The position numbers and the translations under genes were made by a program. The notes under the pieces were generated by a model that was not told the origin of the DNA, searched no databases, and worked only from the letters and a program-made list of their open reading frames with translations. Source: Escherichia phage vB_EcoM_G4498. From it: 64,000 nucleotides of DNA. Below are positions 2,448-32,992 of the stretch, piece after piece. Each line of letters opens with the position of its first letter. Position 1 is the stretch's first letter. The DNA is taken from the sequence record NC_054918.1; one strand, written 5' to 3'.

Positions 2448-4264
2448 TACTGGCTCATCCATTCTTTACGAAGGTCAGCATTATCTCCCATGAGCATTTC
2501 AAAAAGCTCTTTCCAGTTCTCAGGAAGTTTAACAACATCATATACTGGATTTTGAATCATCTCACGATATTCAGATTTTTCCAAAGAGCCAAGTCCTTTA
2601 ATATAACGGATGCTATGTTTAGGTAGAGCATCTTTAGCACTCTCATATTCAGCGACTGTATAAAACCATTCTTGTTTTTTACCAATCTGTGCGATGATTA
2701 CAGGAGTTTTGACAAAGCGAATTCGTCCTTGCTCAAACAGTTCTGGCCAATTACTAAAAAATCCAAGCAGAGAAGGATAAATGCTTCCTAGACCATCATG
2801 GTCAGCATCAGTCATAATAGCAATATTATGATAATTCAAGTTTTCAGCTTTTTCACCGAGAACTAATCCAGTGATTGCGCAAATATCAAACAGTTCTTTG
2901 TTTTTAAGCATGTCAGCATATGACATACCCCAACTGTTGAGAACTTTACCACGTAATGGATAACCACCGTGAAGTTCTTTATCACGAACATCAATAAGAT
3001 ATCCGATAGCCGAATCACCCTCAGTCAAGAAAAGAGTAGTATCAGCATCTTTACCACAAAGATTCGCTTTAATATGTTTATGAACCTTAGCTTTAGAAGC
3101 CTTTTTAGCTGCTTTAGTTTCTGCTGCTTTTTCTGCCGCCAATTTACGAGCCAAAGCAGCTTCAATAATCGGCATTAGAATTGCTTCATTATTTAGAATA
3201 GCGCGTGAAATCTTTTTAGCATCAAGTTGAATATGACTACGAATTTCGCCAAATGGAGAAGTCAAACGCTCTTTAGTTTGAGAATCAAATCGCATGTTTT
3301 TCATATCACGAACAAACATAACGATAGTCAAACATTCTTTAACACGCGCTTTAGTTACATCAATTTTGAACTTACGTTTGATTTGTGGAATAAGGTCTTC
3401 ACAAATATCATCCATAACACAGTCAATGTGATGGCCACCATTCTTAGTGTGAATGTTATTGACGTATGTTAATTGACGAAAACCATCCGGTGAACGACCA
3501 ACCGCAATAGAACAATTTTCTTGTTCTTGAACAATAGCATGCTCATCATATTGGCGTGCATATTTCTTAAAATTGCCCTGAACCTTTTTACCATTAAAGG
3601 TAAATTGAATATCAGGATAAACAACAGCAAGTGTCTGGAGACGATCTAATGTAATGTCAAGATAAACTTGAGATAATTCATTAGTTTCAAATGACATAAA
3701 ATCTGGAATGAAAGTAACACGAGTTCCTTTCCATTTTCCAGGAATAGTTTCCCATGATTTATTTTCCATGCCATTTGAACAACGAACTACAATATTATTT
3801 TGACCATCGCCAGTTTCACCGACAAACATCACAGAAAAAATGTTAGTTAAACTAGAACCAACACCATTCATACCACCGGTGACGCGTTCTTTATCATCAC
3901 CAAAGTTACCACCTGCTTTTGGAATAGTCCACGCAGCAACTGGACCAGGAATTTCTTCACCGGTAGGTGTTTTGACCATCGCTTGTGGAATACCACGACC
4001 GTTATCTTCAACTGTTACTTGATTGTTTTTAATAGTAACATTAATTTTATTTGCGAATTTAAACTTAGTACGAATACCTTCATCTACTGAGTTATCGATA
4101 ATTTCATCAATAAGCTTAACAAGACCAGGTACATACTGAACACTTTCCCATTTACCAAACAGAAAGCGCTCATGCATTTCATTAGCGGAAGAGCCAATGT
4201 ACATGCCGCTACGCTTTTTGATATGTTCAATATCGCTCAGAATTTTAATTTCATTCTTAATCAT
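2447..4264 (-). CDS. 39: DNA topoisomerase II large subunit, uninterrupted 605 aa (T4 39 + 60 equivalent)
   Basis: GHKL ATPase and Toprim motifs. The sequence ...GEKAENLNYHNIAIMTDADHDGLGSIYPSLLGFF... is continuous. ATG at 4262-4264; the track ORF begins one codon earlier at a GTG. Confidence 0.95.
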   Translation of the reverse strand: MIKNEIKILSDIEHIKKRSGMYIGSSANEMHERFLFGKWESVQYVPGLVKLIDEIIDNSVDEGIRTKFKFANKINVTIKNNQVTVEDNGRGIPQAMVKTPTGEEIPGPVAAWTIPKAGGNFGDDKERVTGGMNGVGSSLTNIFSVMFVGETGDGQNNIVVRCSNGMENKSWETIPGKWKGTRVTFIPDFMSFETNELSQVYLDITLDRLQTLAVVYPDIQFTFNGKKVQGNFKKYARQYDEHAIVQEQENCSIAVGRSPDGFRQLTYVNNIHTKNGGHHIDCVMDDICEDLIPQIKRKFKIDVTKARVKECLTIVMFVRDMKNMRFDSQTKERLTSPFGEIRSHIQLDAKKISRAILNNEAILMPIIEAALARKLAAEKAAETKAAKKASKAKVHKHIKANLCGKDADTTLFLTEGDSAIGYLIDVRDKELHGGYPLRGKVLNSWGMSYADMLKNKELFDICAITGLVLGEKAENLNYHNIAIMTDADHDGLGSIYPSLLGFFSNWPELFEQGRIRFVKTPVIIAQIGKKQEWFYTVAEYESAKDALPKHSIRYIKGLGSLEKSEYREMIQNPVYDVVKLPENWKELFEMLMGDNADLRKEWMSQ

Positions 4265-4291
4265 CACTTATCCTCGTTTGGTTTCGGGAAT

Positions 4292-4318
4292 ATTATACTC
4301 CGGTAATCATAAAGCTAA
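4292..4318 (-). promoter_or_regulatory. probable MotA-dependent middle promoter for gene 39
   Basis: Minus strand TTAGCTTTA (one mismatch to the MotA box a/t-a/t-TGCTT-t/c-A), 12 nt, TATAAT. Confidence 0.45.
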
Positions 4319-4334
4319 AGGCCCGAAGGCCTTT
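4317..4334 (-). terminator. UUCG-tetraloop hairpin
   Basis: Minus strand AAAGGCC-UUCG-GGCCUUU. Overlaps the stop of 4334-4594. Confidence 0.6.
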
Positions 4335-4594
4335 TATTTAAAACGAATAGTCGAATCCTTGAAGAATAGTCCAGAACATACTGTTCCTTCTACTTTCTGC
4401 CCAGTAGGTCCAATAGCACGAAATCCAGTATGTTGGAAATCATTTTCAGAACAACCGAACCAGTTATATCCAGTGATTTCAATATTAGTAAAACCGCTTG
4501 AAGACAAAACTTTGGTTGCATTATCAGCATCAGTACATCCTACTAAAGACACTGCTAATACTAATGCCGCGATAGAACGATTAATATATTTCAT
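4334..4594 (-). CDS. predicted lipoprotein (39.1 position)
   Basis: Signal peptide with lipobox ...AVSLVGC. ATG at 4592-4594; an alternative GTG at 4601-4603 overlaps the upstream stop. Confidence 0.6.
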   Translation of the reverse strand: MKYINRSIAALVLAVSLVGCTDADNATKVLSSSGFTNIEITGYNWFGCSENDFQHTGFRAIGPTGQKVEGTVCSGLFFKDSTIRFK

Positions 4595-14940: not shown

Positions 14941-14962
14941 AAGGACTCCCGAAGGAGTCCTT
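14941..14962 (-). terminator. rho-independent terminator after soc
   Basis: AAGGACUCC-UUCG-GGAGUCCUU followed by a U-run. Confidence 0.8.
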
Positions 14963-15212: not shown

Positions 15213-15242
15213 GTAATTCTCCTTTTATTTAAATTACATGAT

Positions 15243-15250
15243 TATTTATA
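15243..15250 (-). promoter_or_regulatory. late promoter TATAAATA for soc
   Basis: Exact TATAAATA on the minus strand, 31 nt before the soc ATG. Confidence 0.8.
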
Positions 15251-15280
15251 ATAAATTCTCGCGGCTTTTAAGACGAGCTG

Positions 15281-15799
15281 TTAATAACCTCGGTCTTGAC
15301 GAGCGAAATTTTCAGCATTTTTCAGATAATAAAGTTTAAAGATTTCTTCTGCTGTAAGACCAAGACCTTGAAACATGTTCAGAACAAAATGGAGAATATC
15401 AATCATTTCGAATTTGATTTCTAACTGGTCCTGTGGAGACAAATCAGTAATCAGAGTTTCACGACGTTCACCATGCTGAGCTTTCCACGGCTTCCATACA
15501 GCAGATGCATCTTTTTCGCCATTACTCATACCACCAAGAGAAGTCAGAAGTTCGCGGAATTCATCATCAATATAATCTTTCTGATTACGCAGCCAATCAA
15601 CAACTTCACCTGCAGTAGCCAAATCATCAGGATGACGGTTATATTCAGGTTTATCTTTAGCTAAACGAACTTGCAGAGATTTCTGCATATCAAGCATTAC
15701 CTGCAGCGGGTCTTTTTCATCACCGAGAATATCCCAATATTCATTTTGAGCTTTATCAGCGCCTTCGATCAGTTGACTACATTCGTTGAAATGTGGCAT
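15281..15799 (-). CDS. 56: dCTPase/dUTPase (gp56), 172 aa
   Basis: MazG-like all-alpha NTP pyrophosphatase sequence. Matches T4 gp56 in size and position. Confidence 0.9.
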   Translation of the reverse strand: MPHFNECSQLIEGADKAQNEYWDILGDEKDPLQVMLDMQKSLQVRLAKDKPEYNRHPDDLATAGEVVDWLRNQKDYIDDEFRELLTSLGGMSNGEKDASAVWKPWKAQHGERRETLITDLSPQDQLEIKFEMIDILHFVLNMFQGLGLTAEEIFKLYYLKNAENFARQDRGY

Positions 15800-15800
15800 G

Positions 15801-16451
15801 TTATTTTTCCTTTCTTATGAAGTTTTCTATCATATGTCTATAGCAGATATTAGGATAACCTGCCTTGACAGCTATTTTATTAAATTTTGTGCGCTTAGGT
15901 CTATTATTATAAACCCATAATTCATAAAGCGCATCATAACTATTCCATATTTCTCCTCGCCTAGGATTTGGTAAACCATATCGAGGTGAATTTTTACCGC
16001 TAAATCTTCCTTTTCGGGCTTTACTCATATTAGCCTTGGCTTCATCGGATATAATTTTACCTTTATGAGCTAGACGCATTTTGGCTTTAGTTTCTTCTGG
16101 GGTCTTTTTGCCTTTAATCCATGACGGCTTGCCATATCTAGGATTATTTTCACCCGAGAAAAGAACAGAGTTTTGGATTTTAAGGGTTTCTATTAATCTA
16201 CTTGTTAATTTAACACCTTTATTATATCGCATTAAATTTACAGCATAATGCAATCCTCTCACATCTGGATATATTTTAGTTAATAATCTATGAGCTATAA
16301 AATGCTCACGCGCAGTTAACTCAACAAGATTGTTTTTGTCATCTGCTCCTCCTATACATCTAGGAATTATATGATGGCGTTCTTTATATCCGCCAAGATG
16401 CCGGCATTTAGCTTTTGTAATTAAAGCCGAGTAAATTTTTTGGTAATTCAC
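15801..16451 (-). CDS. free-standing HNH homing endonuclease (Mob-like), 216 aa, GTG start
   Basis: HHIIPR...NLV.LT.REH HNH core. NUMOD3-like repeats (NNPRYGKP, KNSPRYGLP). GTG at 16449-16451 after AAGGA. Confidence 0.85.
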   Translation of the reverse strand: MNYQKIYSALITKAKCRHLGGYKERHHIIPRCIGGADDKNNLVELTAREHFIAHRLLTKIYPDVRGLHYAVNLMRYNKGVKLTSRLIETLKIQNSVLFSGENNPRYGKPSWIKGKKTPEETKAKMRLAHKGKIISDEAKANMSKARKGRFSGKNSPRYGLPNPRRGEIWNSYDALYELWVYNNRPKRTKFNKIAVKAGYPNICYRHMIENFIRKEK

Positions 16452-16484
16452 ATATATCCTTTCAATTCATGGGTTAGTAGATTA

Positions 16485-16510
16485 ATTATACAATAAATAT
16501 ATAAAGCAAT
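16485..16510 (-). promoter_or_regulatory. MotA-dependent middle promoter upstream of the HNH gene and gene 56
   Basis: Minus strand ATTGCTTTA (perfect MotA box), 11 nt, TATAAT. Confidence 0.6.
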
Positions 16511-16521
16511 AAGGAGGACAT

Positions 16522-16722
16522 ATGGTACAAAAATTAATGGCACTTGTTAATGCCATAAAAGGTAATAAGAAACGTATAGCTTTTACTATTTCTGCTATGG
16601 TAGGAATTTTACTCTGGAACTTTATTTTATCACCTGTTGCAATTGCACATGGTATTAATATTCCAGTAGTTACTCTTGATACATTCGTAGATTTAGCATT
16701 TGCTTTAGTTGGGTTAATTTAA
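16522..16722 (+). CDS. small two-TM membrane protein, 66 aa, plus strand
   Basis: Strong SD AAGGAGG 4 nt before the ATG and phage-like A/T-ending codons. Two hydrophobic segments. The 3-prime end overlaps the gene 61 stop convergently. Confidence 0.45.
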   Translation: MVQKLMALVNAIKGNKKRIAFTISAMVGILLWNFILSPVAIAHGINIPVVTLDTFVDLAFALVGLI

Positions 16723-17747
16723 ATCTTAGCATATTTAGATAGCCGCATTTTAGCCATCAACCCCTGGGCAATATTATTTTTCATATATTCCATAATTTGT
16801 TCAGGGGTTGCACCTTCCTTTCTAATCATATCATTAACATCTTTTGATTTCCAGGGAGATTTATCCCAAAACATAACCCTTTCTCCTACATCAACTAATT
16901 TAGTCATTCGCTTGATAGTGTCAGGGTGACGAGGTTCATTATCTAAAACCCACACTCGTCTATCTTTAAATGGAACAACTTCTAGGTCTAATTGACCACC
17001 CGTAATAGCTATACCATTTTCAATAAAAAGTGAATCTATAGGTCCTTCTAGAACATATACATCACCATCTTTAACTCGTTCAACACCGTAAATTTTTGTT
17101 GCCTCAGGATAAGCTTTAATGGTGATATATTTTTGAGGAGCATCTTTCTTTAATGCACGTCCTTGAAAAGACTCAGCTTTTCCATTAGCATTATAAATTG
17201 GAATAACAAGACGAGGCTCAGAAATTTCCTTTTTGTATGTTCCCGGTGCTATGCTATTAACTAATTTAGGCCATTCGGTTGTAAACCAAAGATATTTCCA
17301 TTTATCCTTTGGAATACAACGAGCTTTTACATATTTTATAATTGGATGGTCTTCCGCCAGTTTATCTAATCTAACACATGACGGAAGAGATTTAATTATT
17401 TTCTTCTCAGGTTGCTTAGGAAGTTCTTTAGGTTTTTCTACTGGACGACTTTTACCTTTTTCTTTTCTTATTTCAAAAATATACTCACGATATAAATCAG
17501 GTTCAAACTCCTTTAAATATATTCCGATTGGTGCATGATAGTTACAGTTATAACAATGAATATTTCCTTCATTATTATCGCCGTAATACCATCCACGGGC
17601 TTTATTTTGGTCGGTTTTTGAATCTCCACAAACAGGGCATCTAAACCGTAATTTAAAAGTTGAACTATTATTTACTTGTGTGAATTTAGGTAAATGAGCT
17701 AGCGCACGGTATGCAAACTCATTATCAATCCAAGGTATTGATGACAT
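16719..17747 (-). CDS. 61: DNA primase gp61, 342 aa
   Basis: Zinc ribbon CPVCGDS...CYNC plus Toprim. Matches T4 gp61. Confidence 0.95.
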   Translation of the reverse strand: MSSIPWIDNEFAYRALAHLPKFTQVNNSSTFKLRFRCPVCGDSKTDQNKARGWYYGDNNEGNIHCYNCNYHAPIGIYLKEFEPDLYREYIFEIRKEKGKSRPVEKPKELPKQPEKKIIKSLPSCVRLDKLAEDHPIIKYVKARCIPKDKWKYLWFTTEWPKLVNSIAPGTYKKEISEPRLVIPIYNANGKAESFQGRALKKDAPQKYITIKAYPEATKIYGVERVKDGDVYVLEGPIDSLFIENGIAITGGQLDLEVVPFKDRRVWVLDNEPRHPDTIKRMTKLVDVGERVMFWDKSPWKSKDVNDMIRKEGATPEQIMEYMKNNIAQGLMAKMRLSKYAKI

Positions 17748-26054: not shown

Positions 26055-26140
26055 AGTTTTGTGAAAATTTTTTAGGGAATTCTAAATGTCCAGAATCATC
26101 TGTTTTTCATAAGTATAGATTTATATTACTTGTATGAAAA

Positions 26141-26158
26141 AGGGACCCGGAGGTCCCT
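26141..26158 (-). terminator. terminator hairpin after gene 43
   Basis: AGGGACC-UCCG-GGUCCCU followed by UUUUC. Confidence 0.7.
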
Positions 26159-26170
26159 AGATTTATTCTA

Positions 26171-28867
26171 TCAGCCAAACAGGAAGTCTAACGAAGCTTT
26201 TTCTTCATAGTCCATACCAGCCGATTCACACATGCCCGCAAGCGGTTTAACAAACGATTTTTGGAACAAAGTTGAGTAGTCAATCCAAGACAGTACGTCA
26301 GAACGAATTTCTTTTGGAAGTTCTGTACCCGACGGCCAAGCAATGCATTTGTCACCAAATGGATTTCCTTCACGCAATGGAAGAACCATTACTTTATTTC
26401 CATCCAAAATTGGAGCTACACCTAAACCGCTAACAGCTCGACGATAAGTTAGCACACCACGAATATGGAACGGACATTTAAATCCTGGCCAACCTTTATC
26501 ATCATATTTCGCTATATCGTTCGCAGTTTTTACTTCAGCAATAACTTTATAGTCAAGTTGACGATATTCTTTCTCGAAGTTCTTGTAATATTCTTGGACA
26601 GACTCTTCACCTTCCTGAAGAATACGACGAATACTTTCTTCGAGAGCTTCTTGGACCGCTTTAGGCGTTGAACTTTGCTGAGTTTCCATACCCATGATTT
26701 TTAGATGCGGTTCAGCAAATCGCTTATCTTCCATATCATAAACGTTCAGAGCATAACGCTTTTTCGCTTTCCAAAATCCACCAACACCCTTTGAACCAAG
26801 TGGAGGGCAAGAAATAGCTTCACGGTCCATATGCATCAGATGCTCGCGGTTATTCATATAATCACATAACTCACGATATGCAACATCAATCATAGGTTCC
26901 ATCTTTTTCTTACCGAACTGATTCATGAATTCAACTAAATCGTTCTGCTCTTTGAATCGGTCAAGACCAACTTTTTCAATAACTTTATCTACACAAACAT
27001 ATACCGAATCAGTATCACCTGCTGCGATGAAATCTTCACCATTAGTTCCGCATACTTTATTCAGATATTCATTAATTTTACGAGCAATCCACTGAATACC
27101 GACTTGGCCGAAAATTGTGATAGCAGTAGCATTTCGCAGATCATAATAACGGAAATGAATATTACCAAGAGCACCATAAAGACTATTAATGAGAATTTTA
27201 CGGTTCAGCTGATTTGTGTTAGCAAGTGTAGCTGCTTTTTCACATTCTTCAATCAAACTATTGAGAACAGATTCAGTATAATTCGATAGTTCATTTAAGA
27301 AATCATCACTGAACTTAACATATCGTTCAACTTCAGGTTTAGTTGAACAAGACCCTGCGCCTTTCATAATAATCTTTTTAATAGCTTCGGCATTCATTTC
27401 TTCAGCGAACATTTTCTTTTTCCAATCTTTACGCTGGAAAAATACTTTAGCGATTTCCTTTGGAATGATACCTTCTTGATGCTTATCATACATCCATCCA
27501 TTCGGAGAACAAGAATATTCATCACTTGGTTTAGGAGCTGTTCCTGCGATATATTCATGAATTGGATGAACTTTAAACTGTCCACGAATAGTCTCAGGAC
27601 TAATGTTAACCTGACGAATAATGCTCGGATACAGAGACGTCAAGTCAAAACTCATAATATATCGACGAGCAATTGGTTTAGGTTCAAACACAAATGCACC
27701 CGGAAAACTCTGTTTAACGTGCGAACCTTGTTGAGGAATAACCTTGTGTTCACCTTTCAATGAGTTAAAAATAATAGCATCCCAAGTTTTAATAGGACTC
27801 ATTACACCAGAAAAAGGCATTTTAGCGTAATAAGACATACTTAAAACTAGATCGATAAACCCGCGAATTTTATCAATTGCTTGAACTGATTCTACGTCAA
27901 TGATGTTATAACTAATGTATCGTTGATGATTAGTCTCACGAAGTTTATTAATAGGACCGTCGTATGGTAATTTACCTTTTTTGGTTTCATGTTGAGCAAC
28001 TGATTCCAAAGAGAATGACGGCAAATTAGTAAAAGCGAATTTCTTGTACAAATCTAAATAATCAAGAATAGATACGCCATCAATAGAATAAATTTCTTTG
28101 CTACCGTACATATTTTGAATTAGTTTAGATTTTACTCGACCGATTGGAGAGAAGCGTTTCATACTGCGTTCACCTAGAATCATTTTAACACGATTCATGA
28201 TATACGGAACGTCAAACCCCTCAATATTCCAACCAGTAAAAATAGCAGGTCGTTTCTGTTCCCAGAGATTAATATATTCCATGAGCATATCACGCTCATT
28301 ATCGAATGGCATATAAATTACTCGGTCAAGAATTTCTTGAGGAACTTCATCACCACCTTCACAGTCAAGCTTAGCAGCTAACTTTGCATCCCATTTTGAT
28401 ACTGAACCGTACATTGAATTCAAAAGGTCGAAAACATAAAAACGGTCATCAATTGAATCGTAATGAGTGATAGCATCAATTTCATATTCAGCTTTCATTG
28501 GGTCAGGAAATTTATCACCAGTAACCTCAATGTCGCAGTTAGCTACACGAACAAATTTTCGGTCATAAACAATTTCTGAACCATACGTATCACTGATATA
28601 AGCGAGTTTAAAATCGTTCATACCGAGAGCTTCGAGACCGATGTCTTCCATTCGTTTCATCCAATCTCGAGCATCTTTCATTGATGGAAATTTTTGAGGA
28701 GCACAGTTTTTACCATAGATGTCTTTGTACTTTGACTCTTCCTTACAATGTCTAAACATAGTTGGAAGATATTCTACTTCACGAGTACGTTCCTTTCCGT
28801 TTTCATCAATATAACGTTCAACAATGTTATTTCCGACTGTTTCGATAGAGATATAAAATTCTTTCAT
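26171..28867 (-). CDS. 43: DNA polymerase gp43 (family B), 898 aa
   Basis: Exo and Pol motifs (DIE, SLYPS, YGDTDS-like AAGDTDS). Length matches T4 gp43. Confidence 0.97.
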   Translation of the reverse strand: MKEFYISIETVGNNIVERYIDENGKERTREVEYLPTMFRHCKEESKYKDIYGKNCAPQKFPSMKDARDWMKRMEDIGLEALGMNDFKLAYISDTYGSEIVYDRKFVRVANCDIEVTGDKFPDPMKAEYEIDAITHYDSIDDRFYVFDLLNSMYGSVSKWDAKLAAKLDCEGGDEVPQEILDRVIYMPFDNERDMLMEYINLWEQKRPAIFTGWNIEGFDVPYIMNRVKMILGERSMKRFSPIGRVKSKLIQNMYGSKEIYSIDGVSILDYLDLYKKFAFTNLPSFSLESVAQHETKKGKLPYDGPINKLRETNHQRYISYNIIDVESVQAIDKIRGFIDLVLSMSYYAKMPFSGVMSPIKTWDAIIFNSLKGEHKVIPQQGSHVKQSFPGAFVFEPKPIARRYIMSFDLTSLYPSIIRQVNISPETIRGQFKVHPIHEYIAGTAPKPSDEYSCSPNGWMYDKHQEGIIPKEIAKVFFQRKDWKKKMFAEEMNAEAIKKIIMKGAGSCSTKPEVERYVKFSDDFLNELSNYTESVLNSLIEECEKAATLANTNQLNRKILINSLYGALGNIHFRYYDLRNATAITIFGQVGIQWIARKINEYLNKVCGTNGEDFIAAGDTDSVYVCVDKVIEKVGLDRFKEQNDLVEFMNQFGKKKMEPMIDVAYRELCDYMNNREHLMHMDREAISCPPLGSKGVGGFWKAKKRYALNVYDMEDKRFAEPHLKIMGMETQQSSTPKAVQEALEESIRRILQEGEESVQEYYKNFEKEYRQLDYKVIAEVKTANDIAKYDDKGWPGFKCPFHIRGVLTYRRAVSGLGVAPILDGNKVMVLPLREGNPFGDKCIAWPSGTELPKEIRSDVLSWIDYSTLFQKSFVKPLAGMCESAGMDYEEKASLDFLFG

Positions 28868-32275: not shown

Positions 32276-32992
32276 ATGAATTATAAACTAATTTATGAAA
32301 AGTTAATCTCTAATGCTAAATCTCGAAAACTTGATTGCTATACTGAATCTCATCACATTATACCACGCTGTTTAAACGGTAGTGATGATGCTTCAAACTT
32401 AGTAGATTTAACGCCAGAAGAGCACTATGTAGCTCATCAACTTTTAGTAAAAATTTATCCTTCTGAACCAAAATTAGTCTATGCTGCTAACATGATGACA
32501 GTTTCCACGAAATACGCTAAACGCAACAATAAAACTTTCGGTTGGATTCGTCGTAAACTCTGGGAAATAGAAAAGAACAAAGAATTCTCCCAGGAGACAC
32601 GAAAGAAAATGTCTGATGCAGTAGCTAATAAAGCAAGACTAACTTGTCCTCATTGCGGTAAGTCTGGATTAAGCGGGAATATGAATCGTTGGCATTTTGA
32701 TAACTGTCCAAATCACCCTAATCCTAAAGTTAGACCACCATTGTCTAAAGAACACAGAAATAATATCTCAAACGGGCTTAAAGCAATCGTTCTTGAAGAA
32801 ACATCCTGCGAATTCTGTGGAATGATAGGCAAGAAATGCGTTATCGCAGCGCATAGAAATTTCTGCAAGAAAAATCCAAATGGACGCAAGAAAACTGAAA
32901 AGACTGGTACTTGCGTCCATTGTGGTAAAGTTACCACTTTCGGAAATTTATCAAGATGGCATAATGATAACTGTAAATATAAACCTAGCTAA
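32276..32992 (+). CDS. free-standing HNH homing endonuclease with three C-terminal zinc-finger repeats, 238 aa, plus strand
   Basis: The N-terminus is paralogous to the 15801-16451 product (MNY..IY..LI..AK.R.L..Y.E.HHIIPRC..G.DD..NLV.LT.(R/E)EH). Exact late promoter TATAAATA at 32235-32242 and an AAGGA SD. Confidence 0.85.
   Translation: MNYKLIYEKLISNAKSRKLDCYTESHHIIPRCLNGSDDASNLVDLTPEEHYVAHQLLVKIYPSEPKLVYAANMMTVSTKYAKRNNKTFGWIRRKLWEIEKNKEFSQETRKKMSDAVANKARLTCPHCGKSGLSGNMNRWHFDNCPNHPNPKVRPPLSKEHRNNISNGLKAIVLEETSCEFCGMIGKKCVIAAHRNFCKKNPNGRKKTEKTGTCVHCGKVTTFGNLSRWHNDNCKYKPS

Follow-up and report, generated by a model that had tools for sequence, protein, structure and literature searches.

A predicted Mob-family homing endonuclease gene and a separate dam polymorphism at the gene 56/61 junction of a T4-like phage

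Organization of the gene 56/61 junction

Phage T4 carries the DNA adenine methyltransferase gene dam between gene 56 and gene 61. The corresponding junction of Escherichia phage vB_EcoM_G4498 (NC_054918.1) holds a gene for an HNH endonuclease and no dam, and it was analyzed here within a 64-kb stretch of that phage's DNA (the window). The window begins at rIIA and is 95 to 96% identical over its first 25 kb to several Tequatrovirus genomes; by its sequence, it is the DNA of a Tequatrovirus (T4-like phage). A 2.6-kb segment containing the junction matched 761 phage records, nearly all of them from T4-like phages of Escherichia, Shigella, or Yersinia. The top match was Escherichia phage FL08 (Tequatrovirus; 99.0% identity), the closest complete genome having the window's junction layout. 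The features of the junction are collected in Table 1.

Table 1. Features of the gene 56/61 junction, by position in the window (ORF, open reading frame; aa, amino acids)
Feature	Position	Strand	Basis
Gene 56 (dCTPase/dUTPase)	15281-15799	-	ORF list; Pfam dUTPase_2 match
HNH endonuclease gene (predicted), 216 aa, GTG start	15801-16451	-	ORF list; Pfam and PHROG matches
dam.1, 66 aa	16522-16722	+	ORF list; PHROG 2024
Gene 61 (DNA primase), backbone gene bounding the junction	16719-17747	-	ORF list
MotA-type middle promoter, ATTGCTTTA-N11-TATAAT	16485-16510	-	Pattern match; homologue of T4 P(M)16.53
Upstream GAAAGGA of the 7-bp direct repeat pair (formerly the Shine-Dalgarno sequence of gene 56, here that of the HNH gene)	16457-16463	-	
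Downstream GAAAGGA copy inside the final HNH codons (RKEK*), gene 56 Shine-Dalgarno sequence	15808-15814	-	
702-bp tract in common with a Klebsiella Jiaodavirus	15766-16467	-	Pairwise alignment
dam module insertion point of dam-positive relatives, empty here	16510/16511		Four-way alignment (window, ELT1, AR1, T4)

An earlier annotation made from the letters of the window alone (the sequence-only reading) had described a 216-aa HNH ORF with a GTG start that abuts gene 56 by 1 nucleotide (nt), and the ORF list and junction sequence confirm this description. A single base (position 15800) lies between the HNH stop codon and the ATG of gene 56 ('aaaaataa c atg'). The GTG start is backed by homologues in which the N terminus, MNY(Q/E)KIY, starts at this position, with ATG as the codon in Dhakavirus and GTG as that in Jiaodavirus; the sole in-frame ATG upstream of the GTG is immediately followed by a stop codon.

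The junction occurs in at least five natural states, and all four combinations of HNH and dam presence and absence were found among close relatives of the window. The gene order is 56, dam, dam.1, 61 in T4, in agreement with the T4 map given in the sequence-only reading, and 56, dam, T2_31, dam.1, 61 in T2. It is 56, HNH, dam, dam.1, 61 in ELT1 and 56, HNH, dam, a T2_31-like ORF, dam.1, 61 in IME537. AR1 and T6 have the compact order 56, dam.1, 61, and the window and FL08 have 56, HNH, dam.1, 61.

The endonuclease gene and its independence from dam

The HNH protein matches Pfam NUMOD3 in two stretches (29.3 bits; cutoff, 20.4) and, over residues 1 to 210, the PHROG 655 family 'homing endonuclease' (E = 1.3e-59). 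It is 46% identical to T4 MobE over ∼78% of the length and 35% identical to T4 MobD over 98% of the length. These matches support the earlier proposal of a mobile HNH endonuclease gene. The HNH motif, ERHHIIPRCIGGADDKNNLVELTAREHFIAH, was compared in an alignment of the HNH protein, MobE, MobD, and four further Mob-type proteins (the homologue at IMG/VR locus L017, from another genus; two FL08 Mob paralogues; and a second paralogue sampled from both the window and FL08), and residues H26, H27, N41, H50, and H54 are invariant among the six Mob paralogues. Over the motif stretch, a profile built from this alignment matches HNH domains in two solved structures, the group II intron maturase 6me0 (E = 0.0027) and McrA, 6ghc (E = 0.016). 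A single-sequence search of the HNH protein against solved structures returned nothing significant, and NCBIfam gave only a faint match to the HNH domain of IscB. The ratio of nonsynonymous to synonymous substitution rates (dN/dS) relative to the L017 copy is 0.20 across 20% protein divergence; the protein is therefore under purifying selection. Copies with ≥90% protein identity are present in ∼54 phage records, out of roughly 470 to 500 Tequatrovirus records. Dozens of GenBank records already label the gene 'homing endonuclease', and one labels it 'putative mobile endonuclease D'; literature searches on this particular endonuclease found nothing specific. By these similarities, the gene is a free-standing homing endonuclease gene of the Mob family (HNH plus NUMOD3), an ordinary member of that family with a predicted activity.

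Among the T4 proteins, MobE shares every HNH motif residue with the HNH protein, and its gene is likewise promoterless and directly upstream of a conserved nucleotide-metabolism gene. The mobE site is nrdA/nrdB, whereas the gene in the window occupies the P(M)56/gene 56 site; unlike MobE, the HNH protein has a C-terminal domain resembling the MobD type and a GTG start, and no internal terminator was detected on its own strand. MobD shares the C-terminal motif W..YD.LY.LW...N.PKR..F.......GYP, but its gene is located at nrdC.11/mobD.1 (PMC2988022), and the two proteins are too dissimilar to count as orthologues. The window contains another Mob-like HNH ORF at positions 32276 to 32990 (plus strand; 238 aa), encoded on the strand opposite to that of most surrounding genes. 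Over the N-terminal 164 residues, it shares 36% identity with the junction HNH protein, and it has a weak Pfam HNH match; its FL08 equivalent (26093 to 26809) is annotated 'homing endonuclease'.

The sequence-only reading had explained the junction by a single event, in which a mobile HNH cassette with its own middle promoter replaced dam. The HNH gene does occupy roughly the place of dam in T4, and most HNH-positive records, among the matches listed, are without dam. The latter is expected because 68% of all junctions are dam-less. In opposition to a replacement, HNH and dam stand side by side in ELT1 and IME537, and neither is present in T6 or AR1. Among the T-even references, T4 and T2 have dam at the junction and T6 does not. 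Moreover, in a four-way alignment of the window, ELT1, AR1, and T4, the HNH and dam breakpoints are distinct and flank the promoter from opposite sides: dam lies on the far side, where the MotA box is on one flank and the AAGGAGG Shine-Dalgarno sequence of dam.1 on the other. ELT1 and the window have HNH genes that are 98 to 100% identical, yet the adjoining promoter haplotypes are only ∼83% identical; thus, the endonuclease moved between dam-positive and dam-negative backgrounds. The occurrence of all four combinations, together with the separate breakpoints, refutes the replacement model, and we regard a single replacement event as very improbable. The sequences instead describe two independent and common polymorphisms, the HNH insertion and the absence of dam, which meet at the 56/61 junction. 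We consider it likely that both parts of this account, the identity of the endonuclease and the independence of the two polymorphisms, are correct.

The promoter is a further point at which the replacement model fails. Middle promoters were defined as a MotA box, (a/t)(a/t)TGCTT(t/c)A, near -30 and TAnnnT at -10, 11 to 13 bp downstream. The only match in the junction is the minus-strand sequence ATTGCTTTA-tatatttattg-TATAAT, which by its letters has both the box and the -10 element; across the whole window, 19 matches were found versus 7.1 expected, and 0/100 shuffles reached 19. At the homologous place, T4 record X01416 annotates a mot-box, the -10 element of P(M)16.53, a Shine-Dalgarno sequence, and the start of 'gene 69', which is gene 56 in current naming, and a note in the T4 RefSeq record places oriA just inside gene 56, with the P(M)16.53 transcript as primer RNA. 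The HNH-less T6 has the identical promoter, ATTGCTTTA-tatatttattg-TATAAT, directly adjoining dam.1, and AR1 equals the window across the aligned promoter region. By this homology, the promoter of the window is the conserved gene 56/oriA middle promoter, a backbone element homologous to P(M)16.53. The sequence-only reading was therefore right about a perfect MotA box-N11-TATAAT upstream of the HNH gene and wrong in assigning it to the cassette.

Since the promoter is also present in the HNH-less T6 and AR1, the HNH gene is a promoterless cassette that sits behind a promoter already in place. Promoterless cassettes of this kind have been described for seven seg and mob genes of T4 (PMC2988022), and T4 mobE relies on an upstream promoter (PMC2790892). 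No middle-promoter or terminator match was found within the HNH gene on its own strand, so gene 56 should be read from the HNH transcript. A search of the 5′ leader for RNA structure sequestering the HNH Shine-Dalgarno sequence or GTG found none that was significant (z = -0.38), and the GTG start is the sole visible brake on HNH translation. In some T4 endonuclease genes, RNA structure sequesters the Shine-Dalgarno sequence or start codon.

Insertion site, cross-genus tract, and possible homing

The HNH gene sits exactly between the Shine-Dalgarno sequence and the ATG of gene 56. The leader that now precedes it, ...GAATTGAAAGGA..., directly precedes gene 56 in AR1, T4, T6, and T2. The last HNH codons, AGA AAG GAA AAA TAA, regenerate GAAAGGA for gene 56, and the two 7-bp copies of this repeat are 649 bp apart.

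The same site (61, a dam.1-like ORF, HNH, 56) is occupied by the same endonuclease family in other genera. Protein identity to the window's copy is 92.6% in Klebsiella phage 15882-6-3 (Jiaodavirus), 78% in Escherichia phage UGJNEcP3 (Dhakavirus), and 79 to 81%, depending on the method, at locus L017. Scans of IMG/VR with gp56 and two junction patterns found no Tequatrovirus locus with the HNH gene; these scans contained few Tequatrovirus contigs and were mainly informative for other genera and for one contig discussed below (L008). At the DNA level, the successive quarters of the HNH gene are 96, 96, 80, and 93% identical between the window and the Jiaodavirus, versus 70 to 76% for gene 61 and 73 to 83% for gene 56. 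Near-identity opens abruptly at AATTGAAAGGA, 16 nt before the GTG (position 16467), and stops abruptly at ...CAACTGATCG, 34 nt into gene 56 (position 15766); upstream of this tract there is no recognizable homology, and downstream the identity is only that of the backbone. Within its 702 bp, the tract thus holds the HNH gene, the 16 nt that precede its GTG, and the opening 34 nt of gene 56. Its sharp bounds and near-identical ends, within flanks of 70 to 83% identity, indicate horizontal spread. The comparison indicates that the tract was transferred across genera as a probable mobile, co-converted unit.

The start of gene 56 exists in two forms. All of the HNH-positive sequences examined (window, FL08, ELT1, and the Jiaodavirus copy) begin gene 56 with 'aataac ATG CCA CAT TTC AAC', whereas the naive start in T4, T2, T6, and AR1 is 'a(a/c)ta ATG GCT (C/T)AC TTT AA(T/C)'; the HNH-linked form differs by a cluster of substitutions and a 2-nt insertion around the ATG. 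T6, AR1, and RB14 share the dam-less haplotype with the window, T6 with its identical promoter directly beside dam.1, but they have no HNH insertion and carry the naive start, ATGGCT(C/T)AC. Among the matches listed, ∼30 Tequatrovirus records have no HNH gene and yet carry the HNH-linked start, GAAAGGAAAAATAACATGCCACATTTC, joined to the leader. Such HNH-less carriers include Sf23 (MF158046), ESH35 (ON528745), LF73P1 (OZ035729), and an IMG/VR contig (L008, 975 to 1004), and the HNH-less allele reads aataacATGCCACATTTC in, e.g., Sf23 and ESH35. In sequence, these alleles would be exactly the product expected from a deletion between the GAAAGGA repeats. The linked gene 56 substitutions were also considered as a signature of co-conversion and were downgraded because the variant is found in many HNH-less genomes; the Jiaodavirus tract is the stronger evidence for co-conversion. 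In one further IMG/VR contig (L038, IMGVR_UViG_2974741249_000001; 2743 to 4405), a 5′-truncated HNH copy (81% identity) is followed by a gene 56 start fragment, a second copy of the promoter plus leader, and two incomplete gene 56 ORFs that differ in allelic type. This contig, a rearranged locus or a chimeric and possibly misassembled sequence, was set aside as evidence.

In the mechanism that we propose, the HNH GTG start would rely on two elements already in place, the gene 56/oriA middle promoter and the Shine-Dalgarno sequence that first belonged to gene 56, and the duplicate GAAAGGA in the last HNH codons would keep gene 56, which encodes the essential dCTPase, expressed from that shared transcript. 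T4 MobE nicks one specific strand in the 5′ part of nrdB, the gene just downstream of its own, and is inherited via double-strand-break repair (PMC2790892). By analogy, in a mixed infection the HNH enzyme would nick or cut the DNA of an endonuclease-less phage at or near the gene 56 start, and repair by recombination would carry the endonuclease gene into that DNA along with the first ∼34 nt of gene 56. Transcription from the promoter, the activity of the enzyme, its mode of nicking, and its target site are our inferences. A target at the gene 56 start fits the co-transferred 34 nt, as well as the substitution cluster and 2-nt insertion around the ATG. With MobE as the model, we place the chance that the enzyme would target the gene 56 start of endonuclease-less phages slightly below even.

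A more tentative reading, which we hold possible with somewhat less assurance, joins several of these elements. A compact 702-bp cassette would target the translation-initiation region of gene 56, bringing with it a replacement Shine-Dalgarno sequence and an immune version of the first 11 gene 56 codons. It would have jumped among at least three T4-like genera, and it would be lost again by precise deletion from one GAAAGGA repeat to the other, with resistant scar alleles remaining in dozens of sequenced phages. If this reading is true, a full homing cycle (invasion, fixation, and loss) could be read in natural isolates at one locus.

Several points weigh against this account of the locus. The Pfam HNH score of the protein (18.8 in a single-sequence search) is under the curated cutoff of 21.4, and its cleavage and mobility are predicted. 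The HNH-less linked alleles could equally be the pre-insertion allele rather than a scar, and because the ∼30 HNH-less records share the linked 5′ variant, this variant alone cannot prove either co-conversion or target-site immunity. Free-standing endonucleases often cut hundreds of base pairs from their insertion sites (PMC2988022), and the target could lie elsewhere.

Some of these points would also suit a decaying or domesticated relic, which no longer homes and is kept because its deletion would disturb gene 56 expression. The GTG start suggests low translation, the HNH domain scores below the cutoff, the activity is a prediction, and many genomes keep the linked gene 56 variant without the HNH gene, either through precise loss or because they never had it. 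On the other side, all HNH motif residues are invariant among the Mob paralogues, dN/dS is low over substantial protein divergence, and a DNA identity of up to 96% with a copy from another genus, within far more divergent flanks, signifies recent horizontal spread. We therefore consider a relic improbable.

The role of a functioning endonuclease could also lie mainly in competition between phages (marker exclusion) or in recombination-driven amplification of its neighbours, rather than in its own spread. T4 SegF is, like the HNH gene product, a free-standing endonuclease encoded beside gene 56; its target gene is 56, and it mediates marker exclusion of T2 gene 56 (PMC2988022). Unlike the HNH protein, SegF belongs to the GIY-YIG family, and its gene occupies the soc/gene 56 interval, at the other end of gene 56. 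SegB is reported to promote amplification of anti-defence loci (PMC13096335). Nothing in the sequence of the junction separates such a role from plain homing, the two are not mutually exclusive, and there is no duplication at the locus in the window. As a main role it seems, if anything, slightly less probable than a relic.

Homing by a Mob-family enzyme thus remains our preferred reading of the HNH gene. The finding is a modest one, with the cross-genus tract and the abundant HNH-less linked alleles as its main points of interest. It adds to the catalogue of T-even homing endonucleases a Mob-family member whose insertion site is defined, whose co-conversion boundaries are sharp, and which has spread across genera, and it leaves gene 56 with endonuclease insertion sites on both sides (HNH here and SegF in T4).

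The dam polymorphism, dam.1, and neighbouring features

The sequence-only reading had reported no Dam-like ORF in the 64 kb, and directed searches agree with it. In the window, the best tblastn match to T4 Dam has an E value of 0.53, corresponding to no Dam homologue, and the motif [DNS]PP[YFWH] is absent from ORF segments of ≥100 aa. The complete FL08 genome (167,645 bp) likewise contains no Dam homologue (best match, E = 1.0), and its five DPPY-like motif matches all fall in ORF segments without similarity to Dam. Because dam is absent from both the window and the whole FL08 genome, a phage without a GATC methylase of its own is plausible, and we strongly expect that there is no dam anywhere in this phage. 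For the phage itself, the search behind this expectation covers the 64-kb window.

A contiguous dam-less junction was found in 321/473 (68%) of the matching records, including RB14, Shfl2, T6, and AR1; the remaining records match the dam.1 part alone. T4-type Dam at ≥90% identity is present in ∼182 records. The dam-less junction is the majority state among Tequatrovirus records, at about two thirds. Since dam is absent from most Tequatrovirus genomes, T6 among them, its absence says nothing special about this phage. Such phages probably depend on the host for any GATC methylation, and this could alter how they fare against defences of the host that are methylation-dependent or methylation-sensitive. 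Literature searches on T6 methylation found nothing specific.

Whether dam was gained or lost at the junction is a separate question. The classical references T4 and T2 have dam here, and Dam homologues are widespread in T4-like phages, as would be expected if dam were ancestral and the dam-less junction had arisen by a lineage-specific deletion. However, the compact order 61, dam.1, 56 is also found in Jiaodavirus, in Dhakavirus, and at loci L013, L016, L019, and L022, and the Dam of other genera is encoded at other map positions (RB49 and KP15; beside denV in GomatiRiver_11). Furthermore, the promoter/leader segments of dam-positive and dam-negative phages are ∼83% identical in local alignment and visibly different in the four-way alignment, so the difference between the two states is old and not the result of a recent clean deletion. 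The dam module itself is ∼0.87 kb in T4 and ELT1 and longer in T2 and IME537, where an ORF with faint similarity to DpnII accompanies dam and suggests an acquired module. Because other genera have the dam-less order, with Dam elsewhere on their maps, and because of this companion ORF, we favour dam as an accessory module acquired in the T4/T2 lineage over its deletion here. An ancestral dam that was lost strikes us as unlikely, though less so than a relic endonuclease.

The companion ORF (181 to 186 aa) lies directly upstream of dam and is T2_31 in T2 (MH751506; L066, 2999 to 3544) and its counterpart in IME537 (L069, 2223 to 2783). It contains a D...E-I-K motif and has a faint, sub-cutoff match (E = 0.0096) to Pfam DpnII, a GATC-specific restriction enzyme; it may be the remnant of a GATC restriction-modification module.

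The divergent plus-strand ORF, which the sequence-only reading had treated as special to this junction, is widely conserved. It belongs to the RB32ORF030w/RB69ORF029w family and to PHROG 2024 (E = 1.4e-31), a family label without a function; it is annotated dam.1 in T6 and as similar to RB69ORF029w/RB32030w in T2. In the window, its Shine-Dalgarno sequence, AAGGAGG, is at positions 16511 to 16517, and its stop codon overlaps that of gene 61 (TTAA, 16719 to 16722). T4 has an intact dam.1 (NC_000866, 17738 to 17938; L004, 4739 to 4939), identical to the window's in 64/66 residues, with the same AAGGAGG and the same TTAA overlap with the stop codon of gene 61 on the opposite strand; it lies inside the 310-nt gap between dam and gene 61 that is unannotated in RefSeq. 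In other genera, dam.1 is kept down to 25 to 50% identity, with dN/dS of 0.1 to 0.5. Because it is intact in T4, annotated in T6 and T2, and conserved across genera with this dN/dS, dam.1 is a real backbone gene outside any indel. Residues ∼19 to 42 form a clear transmembrane segment (mean Kyte-Doolittle hydropathy, 1.98), whereas hydropathy reaches no more than 1.47 in the weaker C-terminal segment, which has two Asp residues within it. The 66-aa ORF of the earlier reading is thus present where it had been placed, but only one of its two proposed transmembrane segments is convincing; dam.1 encodes a small membrane protein of the conserved backbone in which a second transmembrane segment is uncertain. 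Literature searches on dam.1 found nothing specific.

Upstream of dam.1, the sequence AATAAATA occurs at positions 16492 to 16499 (plus strand), 22 nt from the ATG and within the spacer of the opposite-strand middle promoter. It matches the T4 late-promoter consensus, TATAAATA, in 7/8 positions, and T4 dam.1 has GATAAATA at the equivalent upstream distance. It is a possible late promoter of dam.1.

On the other side of gene 56, the gap between soc and gene 56 in the window (15213 to 15280) is 68 nt long and lacks segF; in T6 and T2, this place is taken by soc.1 and soc.2. Just downstream of soc (14941 to 14962), a perfect 9-bp GC-rich hairpin, AAGGACTCC-TTCG-GGAGTCCTT, scores as a terminator on both strands. 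By position only, it appears to correspond to the palindrome annotated as terminator t 15.02 in T4 record X01416.

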